Origin: Christensenella sp. | Lineage (GTDB): Bacteria > Bacillota > Clostridia > Christensenellales > CAG-917 | Direction: 5' to 3' | Assembly (NCBI GenBank): GCA_022009775.1 | Contig: CP091723.1 | Location: forward strand, 69,345-133,344 | Length of the DNA: 64,000 nt | Part shown: one piece after another, positions 22,466-59,127 of the stretch | Position numbering within the stretch: position 1 is the stretch's first letter | Layout: every line of letters starts with the position of its first letter | Position numbers and translations under genes: made by a program | Notes under the pieces: model-generated | What the model was told of the DNA's origin: nothing | Database searches by the model: none | The model's input: only the letters and a program-made list of their open reading frames with translations

Positions 22466-23182
22466 TTACTCTTCAACTAGTTTTTCTTTGAGCTTTTGAA
22501 GAACTTTGCACTCGATGCGGCTCACCTGCACTTGTGATACTCCGAGCTCGGCTGCGATTTCGCTTTGAGTTTTGTCTCTGAAATAGCGAAGAATTATCAC
22601 TTTTTTCTCTCTTTCCGGCAAGTCTTCTATGAAATCTTTGAGCATGATTTTGTCAAGGTCTTCATCGGGCGAGCGATCTCCCACGATTTTATCTTCCAGC
22701 GTAACGTCGTCGTCTCCGACAGTTGACGACAATGACAAAAGATAGTGTCCCGTGTCCATTGCAAACACGACTTGCTCCGCTTCAACACCGAAATTTTGCG
22801 CTATTTCGTCCACAGTAGGCTCTTTTTCGCCGCTTTTCAGTTTCTCGTCGATGAACACGTTGATTTTTTGCGCCAGAGTTTTTGCCCAACGCGACACTTT
22901 GACCGCCCCGTCGTCACGCAAAAATCTTTTGATTTCTCCGCTTATCATAGGAACGGCGTAGGTGGAAAACCTGACTCCGTACGTTTCGTCGAAGTTTTGT
23001 ATCGCTTTTATAAATCCGATTGCTCCAAGTTGCATCAAATCGTCGTATTCACCCCGGCCCTTAAAACGTTTTACTACCGATTTGACAAGCGGAATGTTTT
23101 CTTTTACAAGTTCTTCTTTAGCACCGTCGTCCCCGCTTTGCGCTCGTTTTATCAGCGCAATCGTGGTGTCGTGGTCTAACAT
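22466..23182 (-). CDS. sigF: sporulation sigma factor SigF
   Basis: Sigma-70 regions 2-4. Overlaps the spoIIAB stop (ATGTTAG). Operon order spoIIAA-AB-sigF. Confidence 0.9.
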
Positions 23183-24093: not shown

Positions 24094-24171
24094 CGGGGTG
24101 TAGCGCAGTTTGGCTAGCGCGTCTGATTTGGGTTCAGAAGGTCGGGAGTTCGAATCTCTTCACCCCGACCA
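24094..24171 (+). tRNA. tRNA-Pro (UGG)
   Basis: Cloverleaf with acceptor CGGGGTG/CACCCCG, anticodon loop TTTGGGT and an encoded CCA. Confidence 0.9.
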
Positions 24172-24200
24172 ACCAAAGAAAACTTCACCGATATTGATTC

Positions 24201-24277
24201 GGGCCTTTAGCTCAGTTGGTTAGAGCAGTCGGCTCATAACCGATCGGTCCGCGGTTCGAGTCCGTGAAGGCCCACCA
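24201..24277 (+). tRNA. tRNA with CAU anticodon, Ile2 (lysidine)-like (may be annotated Met)
   Basis: Anticodon loop CTCATAA. The body is GGGCCTTTAGCTCAGTTGGTTAGAGC, typical of Ile-type tRNAs. Encoded CCA. Confidence 0.85.
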
Positions 24278-24287
24278 AAAATATTTT

Positions 24288-24364
24288 GGCCCGGTAGTAC
24301 AGTTGGTTAGTACGCCAGCCTGTCACGCTGGAGGTCAGGGGTTCGAGCCCCCTCCGGGTCGCCA
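24288..24364 (+). tRNA. tRNA-Asp (GUC)
   Basis: Anticodon stem CCAGC/GCTGG, loop CTGTCAC, encoded CCA. Confidence 0.9.
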
Positions 24365-24497
24365 TCGAGTATGTGGCAGTGACAACCGTCACTGCCATAT
24401 ATTTCAAAAAAGCGGACTTTATGTCCGCACCAATCAAAAATCACTTCGTCTTGCCTATAATGACGATATGATATACAGGGTTCTTCCCTTACAATAT

Positions 24498-24573
24498 GCC
24501 TCGGTAGCTCAGGTGGTAGAGCAAGGGACTGAAAATCCCTGTGTCGGTGGTTCGAGTCCGCCCCGAGGCACCA
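24498..24573 (+). tRNA. tRNA-Phe (GAA)
   Basis: Anticodon stem AGGGA/TCCCT, loop CTGAAAA, encoded CCA. Confidence 0.9.
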
Positions 24574-24585
24574 ACAACTGAATAC

Positions 24586-24661
24586 GCTGGTGTAGCTCAA
24601 TAGGCAGAGCAACTGATTTGTAATCAGTAGGTTGTTGGTTCGATTCCGATCACCAGCTCCA
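24586..24661 (+). tRNA. tRNA-Thr (UGU)
   Basis: Anticodon stem ACTGA/TCAGT, loop TTTGTAA, encoded CCA. Confidence 0.9.
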
Positions 24662-24663
24662 AT

Positions 24664-24748
<85 letters not shown>

Positions 24749-24782: not shown

Positions 24783-24876
24783 ACAAGACAATCCTTTGCC
24801 TTTCAGCAGTATTTTCGTGGTTCTACCGCGCAGAAAATCTTTGCTATCAGTTCATACACGGACAAAAACTCCTGCC

Positions 24877-24945
24877 ACAATTCCGCAGATTGTCTGCTTG
24901 CTATCCAAGCGGAGACGCTCTTTTTCGTGTTCCAAGGGTGTGGAT
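24877..24945 (+). repeat. direct repeat copy 1 (69 nt)
   Basis: ACAATTCCGCAGATTGTCTGCTTGCTATCCAAGCGGAGA...TTCGTGTTCCAAGGGTGTGGAT. Near-identical to 25166-25235. Confidence 0.85.
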
Positions 24946-25165: not shown

Positions 25166-25235
25166 ACAATTCCGCAGATTGTCTGCTTGCTATCCAAGCG
25201 GAGATGTGCTTTTTTCGTGTTCCAAGGTTGTGGAT
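25166..25235 (+). repeat. direct repeat copy 2 (70 nt)
   Basis: Same sequence as 24877-24945 except for the central GAGACGCTC to GAGATGTGC segment. Confidence 0.85.
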
Positions 25236-26221: not shown

Positions 26222-26250
26222 TTGACATTTTGCGCATAGATTGCTAAAAT
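26222..26250 (+). promoter_or_regulatory. sigma-A-type promoter of recombinase gene
   Basis: TTGACA, 17 nt, TAAAAT. Confidence 0.55.
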
Positions 26251-26288
26251 ATTTTCGAAAAATATTTTATAAAGGAAAATTTTTCACT

Positions 26289-27374
26289 ATGGCAAACTAT
26301 TTCAACGAACGCGAAAAAATTATGACTAAACGTCTTTACGCAATGCGCGAGCAACTCCCCGCTTTCTGCGAGGACTTTTTTGTGGGTATCGAGCCACAAA
26401 CAAGCATACTGTCAAGGCTAAATTATGCCTACGACCTGAACATTTTCTTCGACTATTTACTCAAAAACGTACGTACGTTCAAAGACTACACCGACGTGCA
26501 CGAATTCGTTTGCGAAGACTTGAACAAGATCACGCTCGGCAATCTCGAAGCATATATGGAATACCTTTCTTATTTCGAGTTCGGCGGAAAAGAACACACC
26601 AACGGCGAAAAAGGCAAATCGAGAAAGATATCCACCGTTCGCACGTTTTTCAAGTACTATTTCAACCATGACCGCATACCGAGCAACGTTTCTGCAAAAC
26701 TTACCATGCCCAAACAGCACGATAAAGATATTATTCGTCTTGAAAAACGAGAAGTCGAACGCATACTCGACGTTGCCGAAACAGGCGAAGGAATGAGCGA
26801 CCGACAAAAGAAATTTCAACGCAACACACGCTCGCGCGATTTTGCGCTCGTATCGCTGTTGCTGGGAACGGGTATCCGTGTCAGCGAATGCGTGGGACTC
26901 AACGTGAACGACATAGATTTTGAAACGAATGCCTTCACCATCACACGAAAAGGCGGAAATCAAGCTATATTGTATTTCGGAGACGAAGTTGCAAGTGCTC
27001 TGAAAAATTATATCGATCACGAGCGCAAGAACCTTATCGAGCGCAACGAAAAAGTTAAAGGCGTTGAAAAAGACGCCGTTTTCCTTTCCTTGCAGGTTAA
27101 AAGACTTTCCGTGCGTGCGGTTGAAAACATAATCAAAAAATACGCACAAACCGCCGCTCCGCTCAAAAAGATTTCTCCGCACAAACTACGTAGCACGTTC
27201 GGCACGAATCTTTACAGAGCGACGGGCGACATATATCTCGTTGCGGACGTTTTGGGACACAGAGACGTAAACACCACCAAAAAGCACTACGCCGCAATCG
27301 AAGAAGACCACAGAAAACTCGCGGCGCAAGTCGTTAAACTTCGCCCCGGTAGAACTCCGAGCGACCAAGAATGA
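26289..27374 (+). CDS. tyrosine recombinase/integrase (XerC/XerD family)
   Basis: C-terminal catalytic motifs ...HKLRSTFGT...LGHRDVNTTKKHYAA. N-terminal SAM-like core-binding domain. Confidence 0.85.
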   Translation: MANYFNEREKIMTKRLYAMREQLPAFCEDFFVGIEPQTSILSRLNYAYDLNIFFDYLLKNVRTFKDYTDVHEFVCEDLNKITLGNLEAYMEYLSYFEFGGKEHTNGEKGKSRKISTVRTFFKYYFNHDRIPSNVSAKLTMPKQHDKDIIRLEKREVERILDVAETGEGMSDRQKKFQRNTRSRDFALVSLLLGTGIRVSECVGLNVNDIDFETNAFTITRKGGNQAILYFGDEVASALKNYIDHERKNLIERNEKVKGVEKDAVFLSLQVKRLSVRAVENIIKKYAQTAAPLKKISPHKLRSTFGTNLYRATGDIYLVADVLGHRDVNTTKKHYAAIEEDHRKLAAQVVKLRPGRTPSDQE

Positions 27375-27516: not shown

Positions 27517-29532
27517 ATGGATATATCTTCCGTCAACAGTGACCTTATTCGCGGCAACGTCACCACCATCATTCTCGGATGCTTGTGGGACACCGACAAA
27601 TACGGTTACGAAATTCTCAAAGAGATTGAAGACAAAAGCAACTCTCACTACGTTTTGAAACAAGCCACTCTTTACAATCAACTCAAAAGGTTGGAAAAGC
27701 AAGGGCTGGTTTCGTCATACGACGGAGACCCTGACGACACGGGTGGTGGCAAGCGCAGATACTATTCTCTCACAAAAGAAGGTCGCGCTTTCCTGAAAAA
27801 AGAAAAAGGCGAATACGAATACTCGCGCACCATTCTCGACAAACTTGTTTCAAACGACGAGTACGACTTCACCAACCCCATACCCTTTGACGCAAGCGAA
27901 CTTCGCCCCTACTCGAAGAGTGCGGAAGAAAAACCCAAAGTCGTGTACAAAGACAAAATCGTCGAGAAAAAAGTGTTCTTTGACCGCTACGGCAACGAAG
28001 TGAGCGCGCAAGATGCCGAACAACTGAGACTTCAGGCCGAACAGGAAGACGAACACGCACGCCTTAAAGACGAGCACGCACGCCTTAAAGACGAGCAACT
28101 AAAACAGCATGAAGAGCAATTAAGGCAATCGGAAGACGACATCCGCAGAAAGAACGAACTTTTGAAACAATCCGAAGAAGACGCCGCTCGCAACGCCGAA
28201 AAACTCCGCCAAAGCGAAGAAGAAGCGTTGAAAAAGGACGAACGTCTACGTCAAACCGAAGAACAGTTGAGAAAGAGCGAAGAAGACAGACAATTCGTCA
28301 AGAGTATGCTTCGCCAAATGGAAGAAGAGAAACTCCGCGCCGAAGAAGAAAAACGTATTGCCGACGAACGTGAACGCGAACGCCTTGCCGAAGAAGAACG
28401 TCTTCGTGCAGAAGAAGCGGAAAAGAAACGTCAGATGCAGGCAAAACCCGCTATGACCATCGAAGAGATGTTTGCAAAACTTGACGCCGAGAGCGAATAC
28501 AACCGTAATAGCGGCGAAACGCAAGTCTACTACGCACCCGAAAACGCCGAACCTATTGAACATACGTACGTCAACGCATACTCTTCACACCCCGTCGAAC
28601 AATCACATTCGCAATCGACGCTAAAAGACATATTCAAGCAACTTGACGAACGCGAGGCTCAAATCGACGCTCAAAACAAGCAAGATGAGCCTGAGCATGA
28701 GCCTGTGCGTGAAGAATACGCCCCCGCCGCTCCGCAAAACGTTGAGCAAGTACAGCCAGTTCAGACAGCACAACCTGTTCAAAATCAAAATACATACGCG
28801 GCGCGCGAGTATATGCCTGCCGAGATAGAAGGCGCAAATCAAAACTACTCTGCTCCTGCCGACAAAGGTCAGTTTGTCACTTCGGCGGTGGTAAATCGTC
28901 AAGAAGGCGGCTTTAAATACGAAAAAGACGACGTAAATTATCGCGAATTCTTCGTATCTCTTTCCGATAACAATCAAAAAGAGCAAGAAGAAGTCAAACC
29001 GCAACAAGTCGATTTTTCGGACAGCGACATCAAGACGAGATTGTATGCCAAAGGCTTCAAAATCCGCCCATACGACCGCGGAAATACAAGCGAATACTAC
29101 ACTTTCAACTTCATACAGTCCAATCGCATCAACCGTGACACGTTCCTTATCATTCTTGCGTTTTTCGTTGCAGAAGTTGCAATTATGTGGGCATCGCTCG
29201 GCACAAAAATAAGTTATACGTACTTCCTGCCCATTCTGTTGGTCGGAAGCGCACTTTGCCTTGTTCCCACCGTCGTGTATCTCACAAATCCGACGCGAAG
29301 AAAGAGAGCGAATTTCAACTTTAAGTTGTCATTGCTCAATCGCGGAATGTTGTTCATAGAACTCACCGTCGTGTGTATACTCATCGGTTTCTTCGGACTC
29401 GGCGCAAACGTCAACGATATTGACCTTATTCTAGAATCGATTGTGCTCCCGATGGTGCTTCTGACCAACCTGCCTCTCAGTTCACTCATCTACTGGTTGC
29501 TGTATAGGACGAGGAAATATCATACAGCTTGA
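27517..29532 (+). CDS. PadR-type wHTH fused to long charged coiled-coil, Gln/Pro-rich linker and C-terminal 4-TM anchor
   Basis: N-terminus ...YGYEILKEI...LYNQLKRLEKQGLV...RRYYSLTKEG matches PadR. About 170 aa of E/K/R/Q heptad-like repeats. Four hydrophobic helices at the C-terminus. GGAGA SD. Confidence 0.75.
   Translation: MDISSVNSDLIRGNVTTIILGCLWDTDKYGYEILKEIEDKSNSHYVLKQATLYNQLKRLEKQGLVSSYDGDPDDTGGGKRRYYSLTKEGRAFLKKEKGEYEYSRTILDKLVSNDEYDFTNPIPFDASELRPYSKSAEEKPKVVYKDKIVEKKVFFDRYGNEVSAQDAEQLRLQAEQEDEHARLKDEHARLKDEQLKQHEEQLRQSEDDIRRKNELLKQSEEDAARNAEKLRQSEEEALKKDERLRQTEEQLRKSEEDRQFVKSMLRQMEEEKLRAEEEKRIADERERERLAEEERLRAEEAEKKRQMQAKPAMTIEEMFAKLDAESEYNRNSGETQVYYAPENAEPIEHTYVNAYSSHPVEQSHSQSTLKDIFKQLDEREAQIDAQNKQDEPEHEPVREEYAPAAPQNVEQVQPVQTAQPVQNQNTYAAREYMPAEIEGANQNYSAPADKGQFVTSAVVNRQEGGFKYEKDDVNYREFFVSLSDNNQKEQEEVKPQQVDFSDSDIKTRLYAKGFKIRPYDRGNTSEYYTFNFIQSNRINRDTFLIILAFFVAEVAIMWASLGTKISYTYFLPILLVGSALCLVPTVVYLTNPTRRKRANFNFKLSLLNRGMLFIELTVVCILIGFFGLGANVNDIDLILESIVLPMVLLTNLPLSSLIYWLLYRTRKYHTA
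28048..28089 (+). repeat. in-frame tandem 21-nt repeat (DEHARLK x2) inside PadR-like gene
   Basis: GACGAACACGCACGCCTTAAA / GACGAGCACGCACGCCTTAAA. Confidence 0.8.
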
Positions 29533-29599
29533 GCAAAAATCGGCGCATGTTTACGGACACCGCACAGTTTGTGCGGTGCCCCTTTATATGCTAGATTTT

Positions 29600-29995
29600 T
29601 GCTCTTCTAACCGCGCCGAGAATTTGCGTACACTAAAATAATTGAACGTTTAAAACCCTAAATGCAACATTACCCCTTCCCTTCGGGCTTTCCCCTACTT
29701 CTCGAATATAGTACTTTCTCTTTTTAAGTACACATCGCTCGAAGAGGTGAAGGCGGCACTCGCATAGATAGGTATCGTCCCCTTATTATGCCACCACGCT
29801 TTGTGCGCCGGCTCCGCAACAACACGGCGCAGTCGCTCGTACAACCGTCAAGCTCGGCGCTTATCTCGGCGTTCGCCTTGCGAACGCTCACTTCGAATAT
29901 ACACATTCCGCGTATAAGTACCCATGAATGAGTGAACGTCAAAGACCGCTCCACAAACTCGCGGTTGGTGGCTTATATACACTTCTAACCGCATT
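29600..29995 (-). ncRNA. copy A of conserved structured non-coding element (unknown class)
   Basis: Shares long blocks with 35365-35820 and inverted 52261-52585, with compensatory changes in at least 2 helices. No conserved ORF. Strand inferred from G-U pairs in the other copies. Confidence 0.5.
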
Positions 29996-30003
29996 GATTA
30001 TAT

Positions 30004-30033
30004 AAAAAAGAACGGCGGATGCCGTTCTTTTTG
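30004..30033. terminator. bidirectional intrinsic terminator
   Basis: GAACGGC-GGAT-GCCGTTC flanked by an A-run and a T-run. Follows the hypA-like gene on the minus strand. Confidence 0.7.
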
Positions 30034-30051: not shown

Positions 30052-30476
30052 TTATTCGCCTTTGCTTTGAGTTGAGTCCGTGCTGTCCGTTATTGCGGAT
30101 TGGGCGGATTCTTCTTCAACGATTTCGTCTTCGGGGACAAGAATTTCTTTGATCAAAAACTCTCTGCCCGACAACAAATCCTTGTCGAAAGAGTTGCATT
30201 TGGGGCAATATCCTTCATAGGCGATGACGTTGAACACTTCGCCGCAGTTGCGACATTTTGCCATACCCGGCACGATGTCGAGTTTCAACTTCGTGTGTTT
30301 TTGAAATAAGGCTTTTTGTCGATAGCGGCAGGCCAACATTCGTCAAGGTAAACGGGGATAACGCCGCACAATTCACCGACCTGCAAAACTATGGTGTCAA
30401 CGGCGGGGAGATTTTGCTCCACCGCCACTTGTTCCACCACTTTTACGACTTCAAAAACTATACCGAGTTCGTGCAT
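30052..30476 (-). pseudogene. hypA: HypA/HybF-like zinc-ribbon metallochaperone with acidic tail, frameshifted
   Basis: MHELGIV N-terminus (ORF 30285..30476) and CRNCG...CPKC zinc ribbon (ORF 30052..30339). The frames join if T5 at 30314-30318 is T6. Confidence 0.7.
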
Positions 30477-35240: not shown

Positions 35241-35315
35241 AGGGGAGTGGCTCAATGGTAGAGCAACGGTCTCCAAAACCGTCGGTTGCGTGTTCGAGTC
35301 GCGTCTCCCCTGCCA
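35241..35315 (+). tRNA. tRNA-Trp (CCA)
   Basis: AGGGGAGTGGCTCAATGGTAGAGC, anticodon loop CTCCAAA, encoded CCA. Confidence 0.9.
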
Positions 35316-35316
35316 A

Positions 35317-35346
35317 GAAAAAGCACCTTTTAGGTGCTTTTTTTCT
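35317..35346. terminator. bidirectional intrinsic terminator after tRNA-Trp
   Basis: GCACC-TTTTA-GGTGC extended by A/T pairs, with T-runs on both strands. Confidence 0.7.
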
Positions 35347-35364
35347 TGCAGTTTTTCTTTTTCT

Positions 35365-35820
35365 GCTTCTAAACAGTACACACTTTAAACTTTAATACAA
35401 CGTTACCCATTCCCTTCGGGCTTTGTCCGACTGCGGCGTTTGCAAAGCATCCGCCTTGTTCGCTTTGGCTACAATTCGTCCACTGGACGACTTGTTTTAC
35501 GCGTCGCGCCCTACTTCTCGAACATAGTGCTTTCTCTTTTTAGCCACACATCGCTCGGAGAGGGGAAGTCGGCACTCGCACAGATAAGTATCGTTCCCTT
35601 ATTATGCCACTTCGCCTGCGTGGCGGCTTGGCAACACAGTGCCACGCATTCTCGTACAACCATCTTGCTCGGCGCTTATCTCGGCGTTCGCCTTGCGAAC
35701 GCTAACTCCGAATAAGCATAGTCCGTTTATAAGAACACTTCGAATAGGCTTTCGTTTCGGGCGCAACCCAAAAACTTTGTCATCATGAGAGTATCGAAGG
35801 ATCTCGTGGAAACGAAACGC
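35365..35820 (-). ncRNA. copy B of conserved structured non-coding element (with ~84-nt extra domain)
   Basis: Collinear with copy A. Insertion at 35425-35508. Distal stem 35748-35758 x 35809-35820. Confidence 0.5.
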
Positions 35821-35939
35821 AAAACTTTTTCTGCGCCGTGCCATATATATTCATTGTTTATTATTGATTCCGATTAATTCTTTTTTCTCAATCTCACATT
35901 TATATTGCAAATCGTGGCTTTTTTGTGTACAATGAAATC

Positions 35940-52087: not shown

Positions 52088-52260
52088 ACTTTTATCTTGT
52101 TCCAAAGAAAAACTTTTTCGCTTGTAAATTTTTGTAAAAAAACCACCCTGACACAAAATAATTAATAAAGAATAATTAACAATGAATAATTGCGACACGG
52201 GCACAAAAAGAATTATCGTTTCGCTTCCGCGAGATTGGCACGTTCTCGCTCGCAATGACA

Positions 52261-52585
52261 TAGTTTTTTTGGTTGCGCCCGAAACTAAAGTTTATTCAGG
52301 GCGTACTTATAGGCATTATGCGTTTATACAAAGCGTGGAGCCGCAAGGCGGCGACCGCATCGAATGCCGAGCTTGACGAAAAGTACAAGCGACTGTGCCA
52401 TGTTGTTGCGAAGCAGGCACACAAAGCGCAGTGGCATAATGAGTGAACAGTGCTTATTATGCGAGTGCTGAGTGTTGCCCCCTGCTGCGCAGTCGCCGTG
52501 GGTTCCCTTGTAAGGGGGAACGGCGATGGGGAAACAGATGACGAAGGGGGAAGTCGCATTAATGACACATATCGAAAACTCATGT
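52261..52585 (+). ncRNA. copy C of conserved structured non-coding element (inverted relative to A/B)
   Basis: The 5' motif TTTTGGTTGCGCCCGAAAC is shared with B. The core blocks GCCGAGCTTGAC, GTGGCATAAT and TGCGAGTGC are shared with A/B. G-U pairs and a GUAA loop occur only on the plus strand. Confidence 0.5.
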
Positions 52586-52587
52586 AA

Positions 52588-52708
52588 AAACGCACTAAAT
52601 AGATAAAGAACAAGGAAGAGCCACCAAACACAGATGGGAGCGTACTTTGTCGTACGTGACCGTATGTGTTGGTGGCTCTGACGCAGTTATTTGCTATTTA
52701 GTGCGTTT
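52588..52708. repeat. nested long inverted repeat (two 15-bp stems)
   Basis: AAACGCACTAAATAG (52588-52602) pairs with CTATTTAGTGCGTTT (52694-52708). The inner stem is GAGCCACCAAACACA / TGTGTTGGTGGCTC (about 52617-52680). The outer arm overlaps the stop codon of the 52698..54104 gene. Confidence 0.7.
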
Positions 52709-54342: not shown

Positions 54343-55042
54343 ATGGCACTTGAAAGTTTGCTCGCACTGCTGAAAAATCTCGTTATATTCTCGTCTTACG
54401 TCTCCGAGAAAAGTTCCTTTCCGAAACCGCTCTCGAAAGAAAAAGAAAAGGAATATCTCGACAAATGCGCACTCGGTGACGAAGAAGCCAAAGAGATACT
54501 CGTAAAACACAATCTGCGACTTGTTGCACATATCGCAAAGAAATACTCGAACTACGGAGACAACGACGAGTTGATTTCGATAGGCTCTATCGGACTTATA
54601 AAAGCCATTGAGAGTTTCAATCATGAAAAAGGCACTGCCCTTGCAACTTACGCTTCGCGGTGCATAGAAAACGAAATACTCATGACTATGCGAACGAGCA
54701 AAAAACACCGCTCCAACGTCTCACTCCAACGAGCCTATCGGCGTGGATAAGGACGGAAACGAACTTGTGATAATGGATATGCTCTGCGACGACCACTCGG
54801 TCATCGAAGACGTTGAAAACAACATAATGATGGAAAAATTGCTCAATATAACGCGTTCGGTTCTTACGGACAGAGAATTTGAAATCGTGCGCTATCGCTA
54901 CGGATTGGGCGGCTACCCTGCGCTCACCCAGCGCGAAGTGGCAAAAAAATTCGATATATCTCGCTCATACGTTTCGAGAATAGAGAAAAAAGCCTTGGAA
55001 AAAATCAAGCAATCGGTAAACAAAGAAGACCTGCTAGGATAA
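54343..55042 (+). pseudogene. sigK: sporulation sigma factor SigK (pro-sigma K), single-base frameshift
   Basis: GGAGA SD. Pro-sequence MALESLLALLKNLVIFSSYVSEKSSFPKPL. Regions 2-4 are split between ORFs 54301..54750 and 54743..55042. There is an extra base near 54726-54730. Confidence 0.9.
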
Positions 55043-58356: not shown

Positions 58357-59127
58357 TTACACCATGCACTCTCTGATTTTTTCGAGAGCGGATTTTTCAA
58401 GGCGAGAAACTTGCGCTTGCGATATTCCGACGATTTTGCTTATTTCCACCTGCGTTTTGCCGTCGAAATATCTGAGTTTCACTACTTGAAGTTCTCTCTC
58501 GGGAACGTGTTTCAACGCTTCGTACAACGCGATTTTCTCCGTCCAGTTTTCGGAATTTTCCTTTTTGTCTGCAAGTTGGTCTATAAGTTCTACGCTCTCT
58601 TCTCCGTCGCTGAAAACAGGCTCGTAAAAAGAAACGGGTTCGCTCACCGCATCGAGCGCGCACGCCACTTCGCCGAGCGGAACGTCTATTTCGCTTGCAA
58701 TCTCAATCATACTCGGGTCGTTTGCGTTAAGTTTTGAGAGTTCTTCTCTTGCTTTCAACGCGCGATAAGCAACATCACGCATGCTTCTTGACACTTTTAT
58801 CGTCGTCCTGTCTCGGATTGCACGTCTCATCTCTCCGATTATCATCGGCACGGCGTACGTCGAAAACCTGACGCCGAGATTTACGTCGAAATTTTGAAGT
58901 GACTTCAAAAGCCCAACCATTCCGACCTGAAACAAATCGTCGGCACTCTCTTGCGATTTTGAAAATCTTCCTACACACGACAGAACGAGACGCATGTTGG
59001 CTCTAAGAAACAAATCCTTTGCGCTTTCGTCTCCGTCTTTGATTTTCAATATGAGTTCATCGCACTCTTTCGAGTTTATCTTCGGTAGCGTTGCGGTGTC
59101 GAGACCGCATATTTCAACTTTGCCCAT
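58357..59127 (-). CDS. sigG: sporulation sigma factor SigG
   Basis: Sigma-70 regions 2-4. Follows sigE. GGAGA SD at the internal Met. Confidence 0.9.
   Translation of the reverse strand: MGKVEICGLDTATLPKINSKECDELILKIKDGDESAKDLFLRANMRLVLSCVGRFSKSQESADDLFQVGMVGLLKSLQNFDVNLGVRFSTYAVPMIIGEMRRAIRDRTTIKVSRSMRDVAYRALKAREELSKLNANDPSMIEIASEIDVPLGEVACALDAVSEPVSFYEPVFSDGEESVELIDQLADKKENSENWTEKIALYEALKHVPERELQVVKLRYFDGKTQVEISKIVGISQAQVSRLEKSALEKIRECMV

Follow-up and report, generated by a model that had tools for sequence, protein, structure and literature searches.

A modular, high-copy intergenic repeat of uncultured human-gut Clostridia as a candidate family of accessory structured RNAs

Three intergenic segments, termed here copies A, B and C, were analyzed in a stretch of 64,000 nucleotides (nt) of Christensenella sp. 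DNA (contig CP091723.1 of assembly GCA_022009775.1, positions 69,345 to 133,344; hereafter the window, with position 1 as its first letter). The three copies were found to belong to a large family of elements with a common unit of ~340 nt. Selection acts on the fold of a single strand, which for A and B is the complement, and the family is restricted to a narrow group of uncultured Clostridia from the human gut. A literature search retrieved no earlier description of the element, and the family is one not previously described. With moderate confidence, we read A, B and C as members of an accessory, cassette-like family of structured non-coding RNAs.

Copies A (29600-29995, minus strand), B (~35346-35880, minus strand) and C (~52148-52620, plus strand) were alignable over ~330 nt when the complement of A and B was set beside the plus strand of C. 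Identity was 82% over 232 nt between A and B and 73% over 176 nt between A and the inverted C. Three blocks were common to all copies: GTGGCATAAT (29785-29794, 35601-35610 and 52431-52440), T(A/G)TGCGAGTGC (29756-29766, 35572-35582 and 52458-52468) and GCCGAGC (29852-29858, 35667-35673 and 52366-52372). The hairpin GTTCGC-AAG-GCGAAC of A (29871-29885) and B (35686-35700) was found in the compensated form GCCGC-AAG-GCGGC in C (52340-52352), and a helix that reads TGCGCCG/CGGCGCA in A (29804-29831) reads TGCGTGGC/GCCACGCA in B (35617-35648) and TGTGCC/GGCACA in C (52394-52421). Every coordinate and string that an earlier sequence-only reading of the window had quoted for the three segments, their orientations, blocks and hairpins was verified. 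A covariance model of the core domain (see below) scored 99-122 bits on A, B and C, all of which were in its training set, compared to 9.9 bits for the next-best site in the 64-kb window.

Relatives were collected by a pattern scan (GTGGCATAAT-N16-23-TGCGAGTGC) of one genome per species, which matched at least 106 stretches, and by a profile search of the matched loci and the window, which detected at least 159 copies or fragments. Among the matches listed, these copies came from at least ~17 species-level genomes, all of them metagenome-assembled genomes (MAGs) of uncultured gut Clostridia (CAG:238, UMGS1043, UMGS1366, UBA7588, UBA7571, HGM11462, HGM11452, Hadza MAGs and a few oddly labelled by their submitters). 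Loci without a profile match (e.g., in Pseudomonadales, Verrucomicrobiaceae and Acidobacteriota) were rejected as chance pattern matches in unrelated phyla. When the same pattern was applied to metagenomes, 110 of 120 loci were genuine among the matches listed, with a further 181 copies, and the named samples were human gut. The total thus came to at least ~340 copies or fragments. Given these further copies, and the low score of the next-best site in the window, the similarity of A, B and C is not due to chance. The sequence-only reading had spoken of a three-copy family and had advised a search of related Clostridia; the profile search recovered many homologues in gut Clostridia MAGs and metagenomes, and the window is now seen to hold three members of a high-copy family. 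Single genomes carried at least 30 (CAKQGN01) and at least 22 (CAAFLX01) copies. Units were often arranged head-to-tail with zero spacer, 5' partial pieces were found at 100-250 nt upstream of full units, and 3' partials followed immediately after them.

The structure was tested by averaged pair probabilities, by per-copy folding and by a named structure on the core, with core statistics drawn from 101 distinct core sequences (2121 cells). Standard pairs were present in 93.1% of the cells, compared to 18-54% when partners were slid by 1-3 columns, and the covariation score was 0.180 compared to 0.103 in shuffles, none of 500 of which reached 0.180. Helix P3, the second of the compensated helices given for the window above, had both-sided changes in five of its six pairs. 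By per-copy folding it occurred in at least eight fully complementary versions, including UGCGCC/GGCGCA, UGUGCC/GGCACA, GCGUGGC/GCCACGC, GCGGACGA/UCGUCCGC, GCCGACGA/UCGUCGGC, GCAAACGA/UCGUUUGC, GCCAACGA/UCGUUGGC and GCAAGUGC/GCACUUGC. The outer helix was found to covary too (CCGUCC/GGACGG, GCG/CGC or GU/AC). Several P3 versions were each seen once, in a single genome, which favors compensation in situ over descent from a few masters. The earlier observation that substitutions pair so as to preserve helices is in this way borne out for the family. G·U pairs filled 104 cells compared to 26 for A·C, and the sense strand folded more stably in every case compared; these two results assign the relevant sense to the complement in A and B and to the plus strand in C, in agreement with the sequence-only reading. 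When 61 full copies were aligned by MAFFT without regard to structure, RNAalifold predicted 12 pairs, as helix versions and 3'-domain types were mixed in that alignment.

The unit of ~340 nt, which reaches up to ~650 nt with optional domains, opens at its 5' end with a hairpin of copy-specific sequence (P0 in copy A, with equivalent hairpins of other sequence ahead of most copies) and an A-rich linker. These are followed by a near-invariant unpaired box of consensus G-Y-A-CUUAUA-N-ACGG-W-AUGUGC, for which no pairing partner was found; a brute-force search for long-range or pseudoknot partners gave output too noisy to be of use. Next come a small hairpin of consensus GAGCCGC-AAG-GCGGC (one column pair being GC in 52, TA in 7 and AT in 2 cases, and another CG in 46 and TA in 13), the core of 118 nt, a 3' domain that exists in at least three alternative forms, and a purine-rich tail that reads UUUAGAG, a variable loop and ACUCUUGUAGAGGAAGAA. 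For the core, a four-way junction is the best model. In it the core is closed by P1, an invariant helix with tandem G·A (GCC-GA-GC with GC-GA-G(U)GC), and has as its arms a P2a hairpin, a longer arm of P2b and P3, and P4 (GGCAUA...UAUGC); the last two pairs of P1 and the base of P4 are modelled as rivals for one invariant GC. A conserved insert of ~160 nt was always found in the P2a loop (13 of 13 matches lay inside family copies, from at least 9 genomes, at 72-99% identity), and an insert of 84-95 nt invariably occupied the same hairpin within the 3' domain (eight of eight matches in or beside the 3' domain of this family, other genomes included). A further hairpin of 51 nt follows GCGAGUGCYG in copies elsewhere. 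This restriction of inserts to hairpin loops is as expected for a folded RNA.

Table 1. Coordinates of the three copies, their parts and their immediate flanks in the window.
Feature	Position	Strand	Remarks
Copy A, whole element	29600..29995	-	nhmmer unit 29621-29943, model positions 8-345, 239 bits
Copy A flanks	30005-30032; 29545-29591		terminator hairpins of hypA and of the convergent PadR-like gene, respectively
Copy A core domain, modelled four-way junction	29749..29866	-	covariance model R1, 122.5 bits
Copy A P1	29852-29858 with 29756-29763	-	GCC(GA)GC with GC(GA)G-U-GC
Copy A P3	29804-29831	-	
Copy A P4	29762-29792	-	GGCAUA.../...UAUGC
Copy A small 5' hairpin	29871..29885	-	GUUCGC-AAG-GCGAAC; covaries with GCCGC-AAG-GCGGC of C
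Copy A conserved unpaired 5' box	29902..29921	-	GUACUUAUACGCGGAAUGUG; near-invariant among copies
Copy A upstream hairpin P0	29944..29967	-	ACCGC...GCGGU; same module with altered stems in L021 and L058
11-nt direct repeat around A	29982..29992 and 29604-29614	-	GCGGUUAGAAG; resembles the purine-rich linker motif of unit ends elsewhere
Copy B, whole unit	35346..35880	-	nhmmer unit 35433-35757
Copy B AT-rich leader	~35758-35880	-	
Bidirectional terminator common to B and tRNA-Trp	~35319-35345		AAAAAGCACCTTTTAGGTGCTTTTTTT
Copy B core domain	35565..35681	-	R1 98.9 bits; P3 UGCGUGGC/GCCACGCA at 35617-35648
Copy B optional 3'-domain insert	35425..35508	-	84-95 nt class; lacking in A and in strain L116, found at this position in copies of other genomes
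Copy C promoter-like region and leader	52148..52281	+	CTGACA-17-AATAAT 52148-52176; TTAATA-17-AATAAT 52162-52190
Copy C unit	52282..52590	+	core 52358-52475 (121.6 bits), small hairpin 52340-52352, P3 52394-52421
Family 2 repeat directly 3' of C	52588..52708	+	long imperfect hairpin; 40-nt arms, 75% complementary
Loci of relatives are numbered with the prefix L, here and in the text.

By cmscan against Rfam 15 at gathering thresholds, only tRNAs were matched in the whole window, and only tRNA, tmRNA and Gut-1 were matched in 25 relative loci. No Rfam 15 model matched the ~340-nt unit, even at E<=10, so that the earlier statement that the element fits no named family holds when checked against that database. 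With permissive filters (E<=10 or E<=1), the models of ROOL, GOLLD, OLE, raiA and HEARO had no match in A, B, C or one relative's domain-bearing copy. The element was likewise not found in collections of phages, plasmids and viruses.

We also examined the signals that border the window copies. Copy A lies between the terminator hairpins of two convergent genes, with a TATAAT directly after the upstream terminator, and B and C are antisense to both of their neighbours. Five promoter-like sites were detected for C compared to 1.0 expected, and the leader of C is common to B and to L014, L037 and L071. The hairpin directly 3' of C is one of a second repeat family (family 2), members of which were found within 400 nt downstream of 30 of 116 3' ends of the element (family 1) on the same strand; for both C and the convergent FAD-protein gene, this hairpin may mark the 3' boundary or act as terminator. 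No co-oriented gene lies downstream of A, B or C and the neighbours in relatives are diverse, which upholds the earlier view that a leader or riboswitch role is unlikely. As separate observations, the long imperfect hairpin of family 2 measures ~125 nt; its internal loops (GAUAAAGAACAAGGAAG / CUGACGCAGUUAUUUG) are conserved and its apical stem reads GCGUAC...GUACGUGA. Family 2 has 132 profile matches in 64 loci (both strands counted) and no Rfam match, and also occurs at L027 2205-2400, L081 1590-1700 and L109 5410-5770. The leaders of B (35780-35840) and C (52200-52262) contain CGUUUCGCUUCCGCGAGAUUGGCACG...CGCUCGCAAUGACA, the complement of a GTCATTGCGAGCG-type palindromic repeat that is also found as separate modules in relatives (L017 4560-4650 and L081 1000-1030).

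As we picture the element, each window copy is putatively transcribed from its own weak promoter-like leader to the neighbouring terminator, whereas elsewhere transcription is predicted to occur often by read-through from the upstream gene. The element would act as an RNA, probably as a protein-binding scaffold, in which the conserved core and invariant loops would dock protein to form a ribonucleoprotein scaffold or sponge, and the peripheral domains would be dispensable. Its spread and homogenisation would proceed by duplication and homologous recombination and not by a nearby-encoded transposase. Several points weigh against an accessory RNA family. The single-sequence energy of the core is unexceptional (z = -0.7, 0.0 and -2.5), and much of the covariation stems from a few helix versions common to many copies, such that the cells outnumber the independent events. 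Weakness also marks the promoter-like sites, none of which passes the scan for A or B, and the proposed protein binding is read from the anatomy of the element. Individual copies are dispensable, as they are missing from strains, and paralogues by the dozen, arrangement in tandem, truncation of units and contig breaks at the element are features more of a selfish repeat than of an RNA gene. The sequence-only reading had proposed a stand-alone structured RNA in the size range of the large ornate RNAs. Of this, the non-coding nature, the compensated fold and the separate units stood, and the likeness to the low-copy ROOL/GOLLD type did not: in place of an ornate RNA gene we find a repeat built of modules, both scattered and in tandem, of which single genomes of relatives carry dozens, with truncated units and strain turnover.

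This turnover was observed by comparison of strains at the window loci. At the C locus, three contigs that encode an identical FAD protein were compared: one was like the window, one carried C with the 160-nt domain and an extra family 2 hairpin, and the third had no element and family 2 hairpins instead. At the B locus, contigs with an identical RNase H carried B, B with the 160-nt domain or, in some, a variant of B, and among the spacers read seven strains had one or two copies of a third unit, of 130 nt, in place of B. In four of these seven, which share the tRNA orientation of the window, the 130-nt unit has a similar AT-rich leader on one side and the same terminator on the other; in three tRNA-Trp is inverted, and in two the tRNA 3' end is duplicated. 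No strain variation was found at the A locus, where long contigs match the window and others often break inside A. All strain differences were block replacements with common flanks, and no clean empty site with a target duplication was found, as element-free strains carry other repeat blocks at the site. Modules and whole units have been gained, lost and swapped between strains and paralogous copies.

The sequence-only reading had taken the nearness of copy B to tRNA-Trp as a trait reminiscent of ROOL and GOLLD; it reflects instead a recombination hot spot, with other repeats there in seven strains. The tRNA-Trp locus (35241-35345) is rearranged within the species (L117, L119, L120, L121, L122 and L126), two strains have a second tRNA 3' end and terminator, with an insert of ~170 nt between the duplicates, and in L126 other genes (RadA-like etc.) adjoin the 334-aa gene. 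The third unit (family 3; ~130 nt, ...GGCGGCAACGGCAUUGCUUGC...CUAACCGCGCCGAAAAUC, e.g., L123 3764-3990) replaces B in other strains, L118, L121, L122 and L123 being the four in which it has the leader and terminator just described; it has short matches at window positions 24825-24851, 29597-29623 and 52157-52175, and at one end it is similar to the 3' end of A.

These findings bear on the main rival to an accessory RNA, which is that of a non-autonomous mobile element (a miniature inverted-repeat transposable element, MITE; an IS200/IS605-type PATE; or a retroelement like the short interspersed elements, SINEs), the fold of which, as single-stranded DNA or RNA, would be recognized by an enzyme encoded elsewhere and kept for mobilisation. 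The two are not mutually exclusive, and we regard the mobile element as possible but the less probable description. A copy number that is high and very uneven between related species, the spacerless arrays with 5' and 3' partial units, the many copies at contig ends and the presence or absence among strains are all in its favor. So is a pair of copies from different species (L009 and L101) that are oppositely oriented to the same neighbour gene, and a fold on one strand with G·U pairs is also compatible with single-stranded DNA. By contrast, when inverted repeats of at least 12 nt were searched around A, B and C, terminator hairpins, the family 2 hairpin and one chance pair were found and no terminal inverted repeats flanked the units. 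The 11-nt direct repeat around A, given its match to the linker motif, is no clear target-site duplication, and strains differ by block replacement. Near-identical copies were lacking: the nearest copy within a genome was at most 93% identical (median 88%) and the nearest in another species had a median of 87%, such that divergence within a genome is about that between species and gives no sign of a recent burst, with the caveat that identical copies may be hidden by MAG assembly. The element is absent from the phage and plasmid collections, and compensatory changes in single diverged copies point to selection after insertion. Finally, no transposase-like neighbour recurred when the 342 open reading frames (ORFs) of at least 150 amino acids (aa) within 600 nt of copies were clustered. 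These formed 195 clusters, the largest of 11, and several of the largest we take from their N-termini to be housekeeping proteins (EF-G and GyrB). The same clustering, which covered the contigs only and included no Pfam search, revealed no recurrent tnpA, tnpB, iscB or isrB beside copies.

Unlikely, in our judgment, is a cis-acting role like that of REP/BIME, BOX or bcr repeats, in which the element would share a transcript with the upstream gene and stabilise, terminate or insulate it at the 3' side, with each copy serving its own locus. Context was counted for 62 arrays with both flanks known. The upstream gene was co-directional in 47 of these, at a median gap of 141 nt, and within co-directional gene pairs the element had the same orientation in 28 cases and was opposed in 10, as a cis role would have it; 19 arrays lay between convergent and 5 between divergent genes, and the downstream gene was co-oriented in 33 of the 62. 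The element was largely extragenic, with 12 of 115 arrays overlapping long ORFs. Its mosaic of modules and variable number of small hairpin units are likewise reminiscent of BOX and BIME. However, B and C are antisense to both neighbours, A is cut off from its upstream gene by a strong terminator, and strains free of the element retain the same flanking genes. A junction of ~120 nt with invariant loops and domains of 160 nt is, moreover, far beyond known stabiliser hairpins in complexity.

We consider highly improbable a guide or scaffold RNA that serves the nuclease or recombinase of a transposon in trans (a stand-alone ωRNA, HEARO-like RNA or bridge RNA). Such a role would fit an RNA that is structured, present in many copies, ~300 nt long and conserved in its scaffold, and IscB and IsrB systems are known to have ωRNA copies that stand alone. 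However, the element lacks a match to HEARO or other Rfam models even at E<=10, no large ORF recurs beside any of ~225 arrays, and no hypervariable guide-like segment is present, as the most variable loop retains a consensus. A type III toxin-antitoxin (ToxI-like) layout was also sought, and no ORF recurred downstream of tandem arrays.

The reading as small protein genes or pseudogenes that owe their likeness to a common peptide, to which ORFs at 29724-29954 and 35602-35844, a 153-aa call inside the element of one strain and stop-free stretches of up to 93 aa (72 aa in shuffles) lend some color, was rejected, as A, B and C have no common reading frame and their frames differ, any one frame is open in at most 11 of 62 copies, the core (114-122 nt, mostly 118 or 119) differs by 1-2 nt between its main classes, and substitutions are paired across helices and non-periodic. 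The earlier claim that the segments are non-coding is upheld by the same frames and lengths.

With respect to Gut-1 (RF01706), this motif was reported from human-gut sequences only, with no known organism or function (Weinberg et al. 2010, PMC2864571), and a literature search on it retrieved nothing later than that report. Gut-1 was scored with its 77-position model at a threshold of at least 50 bits. The window, including A, B and C, had no match, and the core strings of the element were absent from the supplementary Gut-1 alignment. In relatives, eight of eight matches (50.1-53.8 bits) had the same strand as a full unit and preceded it by 25-105 nt (L027 1488-1568, L059 1-77, L078 3402-3483, L054 5255-5336, L038 1897-1977, L007 5604-5684, L053 4662-4743 and L093 7521-7602), several of them with a 5' fragment of the unit ahead. 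Gut-1 arrays consist of hairpins with covarying stems that are spaced by GUGAUAUU. Two or more GUGAUAU motifs were found upstream of 16 of 135 units (~12%) and downstream of none, compared to a background of 0.04 per 200 nt. The small hairpin of the element with GAGAAUAU resembles one Gut-1 hairpin unit, whereas the 77-position model covers the small hairpin array alone and leaves the 340-nt unit outside its span. By these sequence comparisons, Gut-1 is an optional neighbouring module and not the element itself. We entertain as doubtful a bolder proposal, that the element is the large partner of Gut-1 and a new class of accessory ribonucleoprotein RNA, or else a SINE-like self-propagating repeat, the core of which is recognized by a protein and which has spread through the intergenic regions of one human-gut Clostridia lineage.

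Other features of the window were recorded near the copies. The hypA-like gene beside A (30054-30476, minus strand) is split into two frames (30476..30285 and 30339..30052); it is intact in L125 and L129, as a HypA of 140 aa, and the split in the window is a frameshift or sequencing error. The PadR-domain protein on the other side (27517-29532, plus strand) has a long repetitive charged coiled-coil and measures 671 aa here and 664 aa in L125; directly upstream of its gene is one for a tyrosine recombinase of the Phage_integrase family (26241-27374, plus strand). Dispersed short repeats were found at 24877-24945 and 25166-25235 (93% over 70 nt, just 3' of a cluster of six tRNAs at 24094-24748), at 22932-22999 and 58829-58896 (81% over 68 nt) and, inverted, at 54508-54748 and 59773-59531 (68% over 249 nt).

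Few large bacterial RNAs with complex, covariation-backed folds remain undescribed, and this family is a candidate for one. As it combines functional-RNA anatomy with repeat-like genomics, it is of relevance to the question of how structured RNAs may multiply without an obvious mobilising enzyme. Gut-1, an orphan motif since 2010, gains an organism (uncultured gut Clostridia) and a fixed genomic partner. In practical terms, the element disrupts the short-read assembly of these gut species and draws spurious gene calls.

Compared to known systems, the element differs from a MITE in that it is without terminal inverted repeats. The BOX repeats of pneumococci, REP/BIME of E. coli and bcr repeats of Bacillus cereus are simple hairpins or stem-loops of 35-300 nt, and REP has a cognate REP-associated tyrosine transposase (RAYT). 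Like these repeats, the element is extragenic, multi-copy and modular, is predicted to fold as RNA, often lies 3' of co-oriented genes and has a mobilising enzyme that is absent or unknown; unlike them, it has a unit of ~340 nt, a junction core, a tandem G·A helix and alternative 3' and optional domains. With HEARO and the ωRNA of IscB it shares a size of ~300 nt, multiple structured copies and a copy number that varies widely between related genomes, whereas no nuclease or transposase ORF adjoins it in ~225 arrays and the HEARO model does not match. OLE, ROOL, GOLLD and raiA are usually present in one or a few copies per genome, in contrast to the element with its at least 30 copies, tandem arrays, strain variation and lack of a model match. 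It is similar to these large RNAs of unknown function in its length of several hundred nt, its multi-helix covarying fold and its optional peripheral domains.

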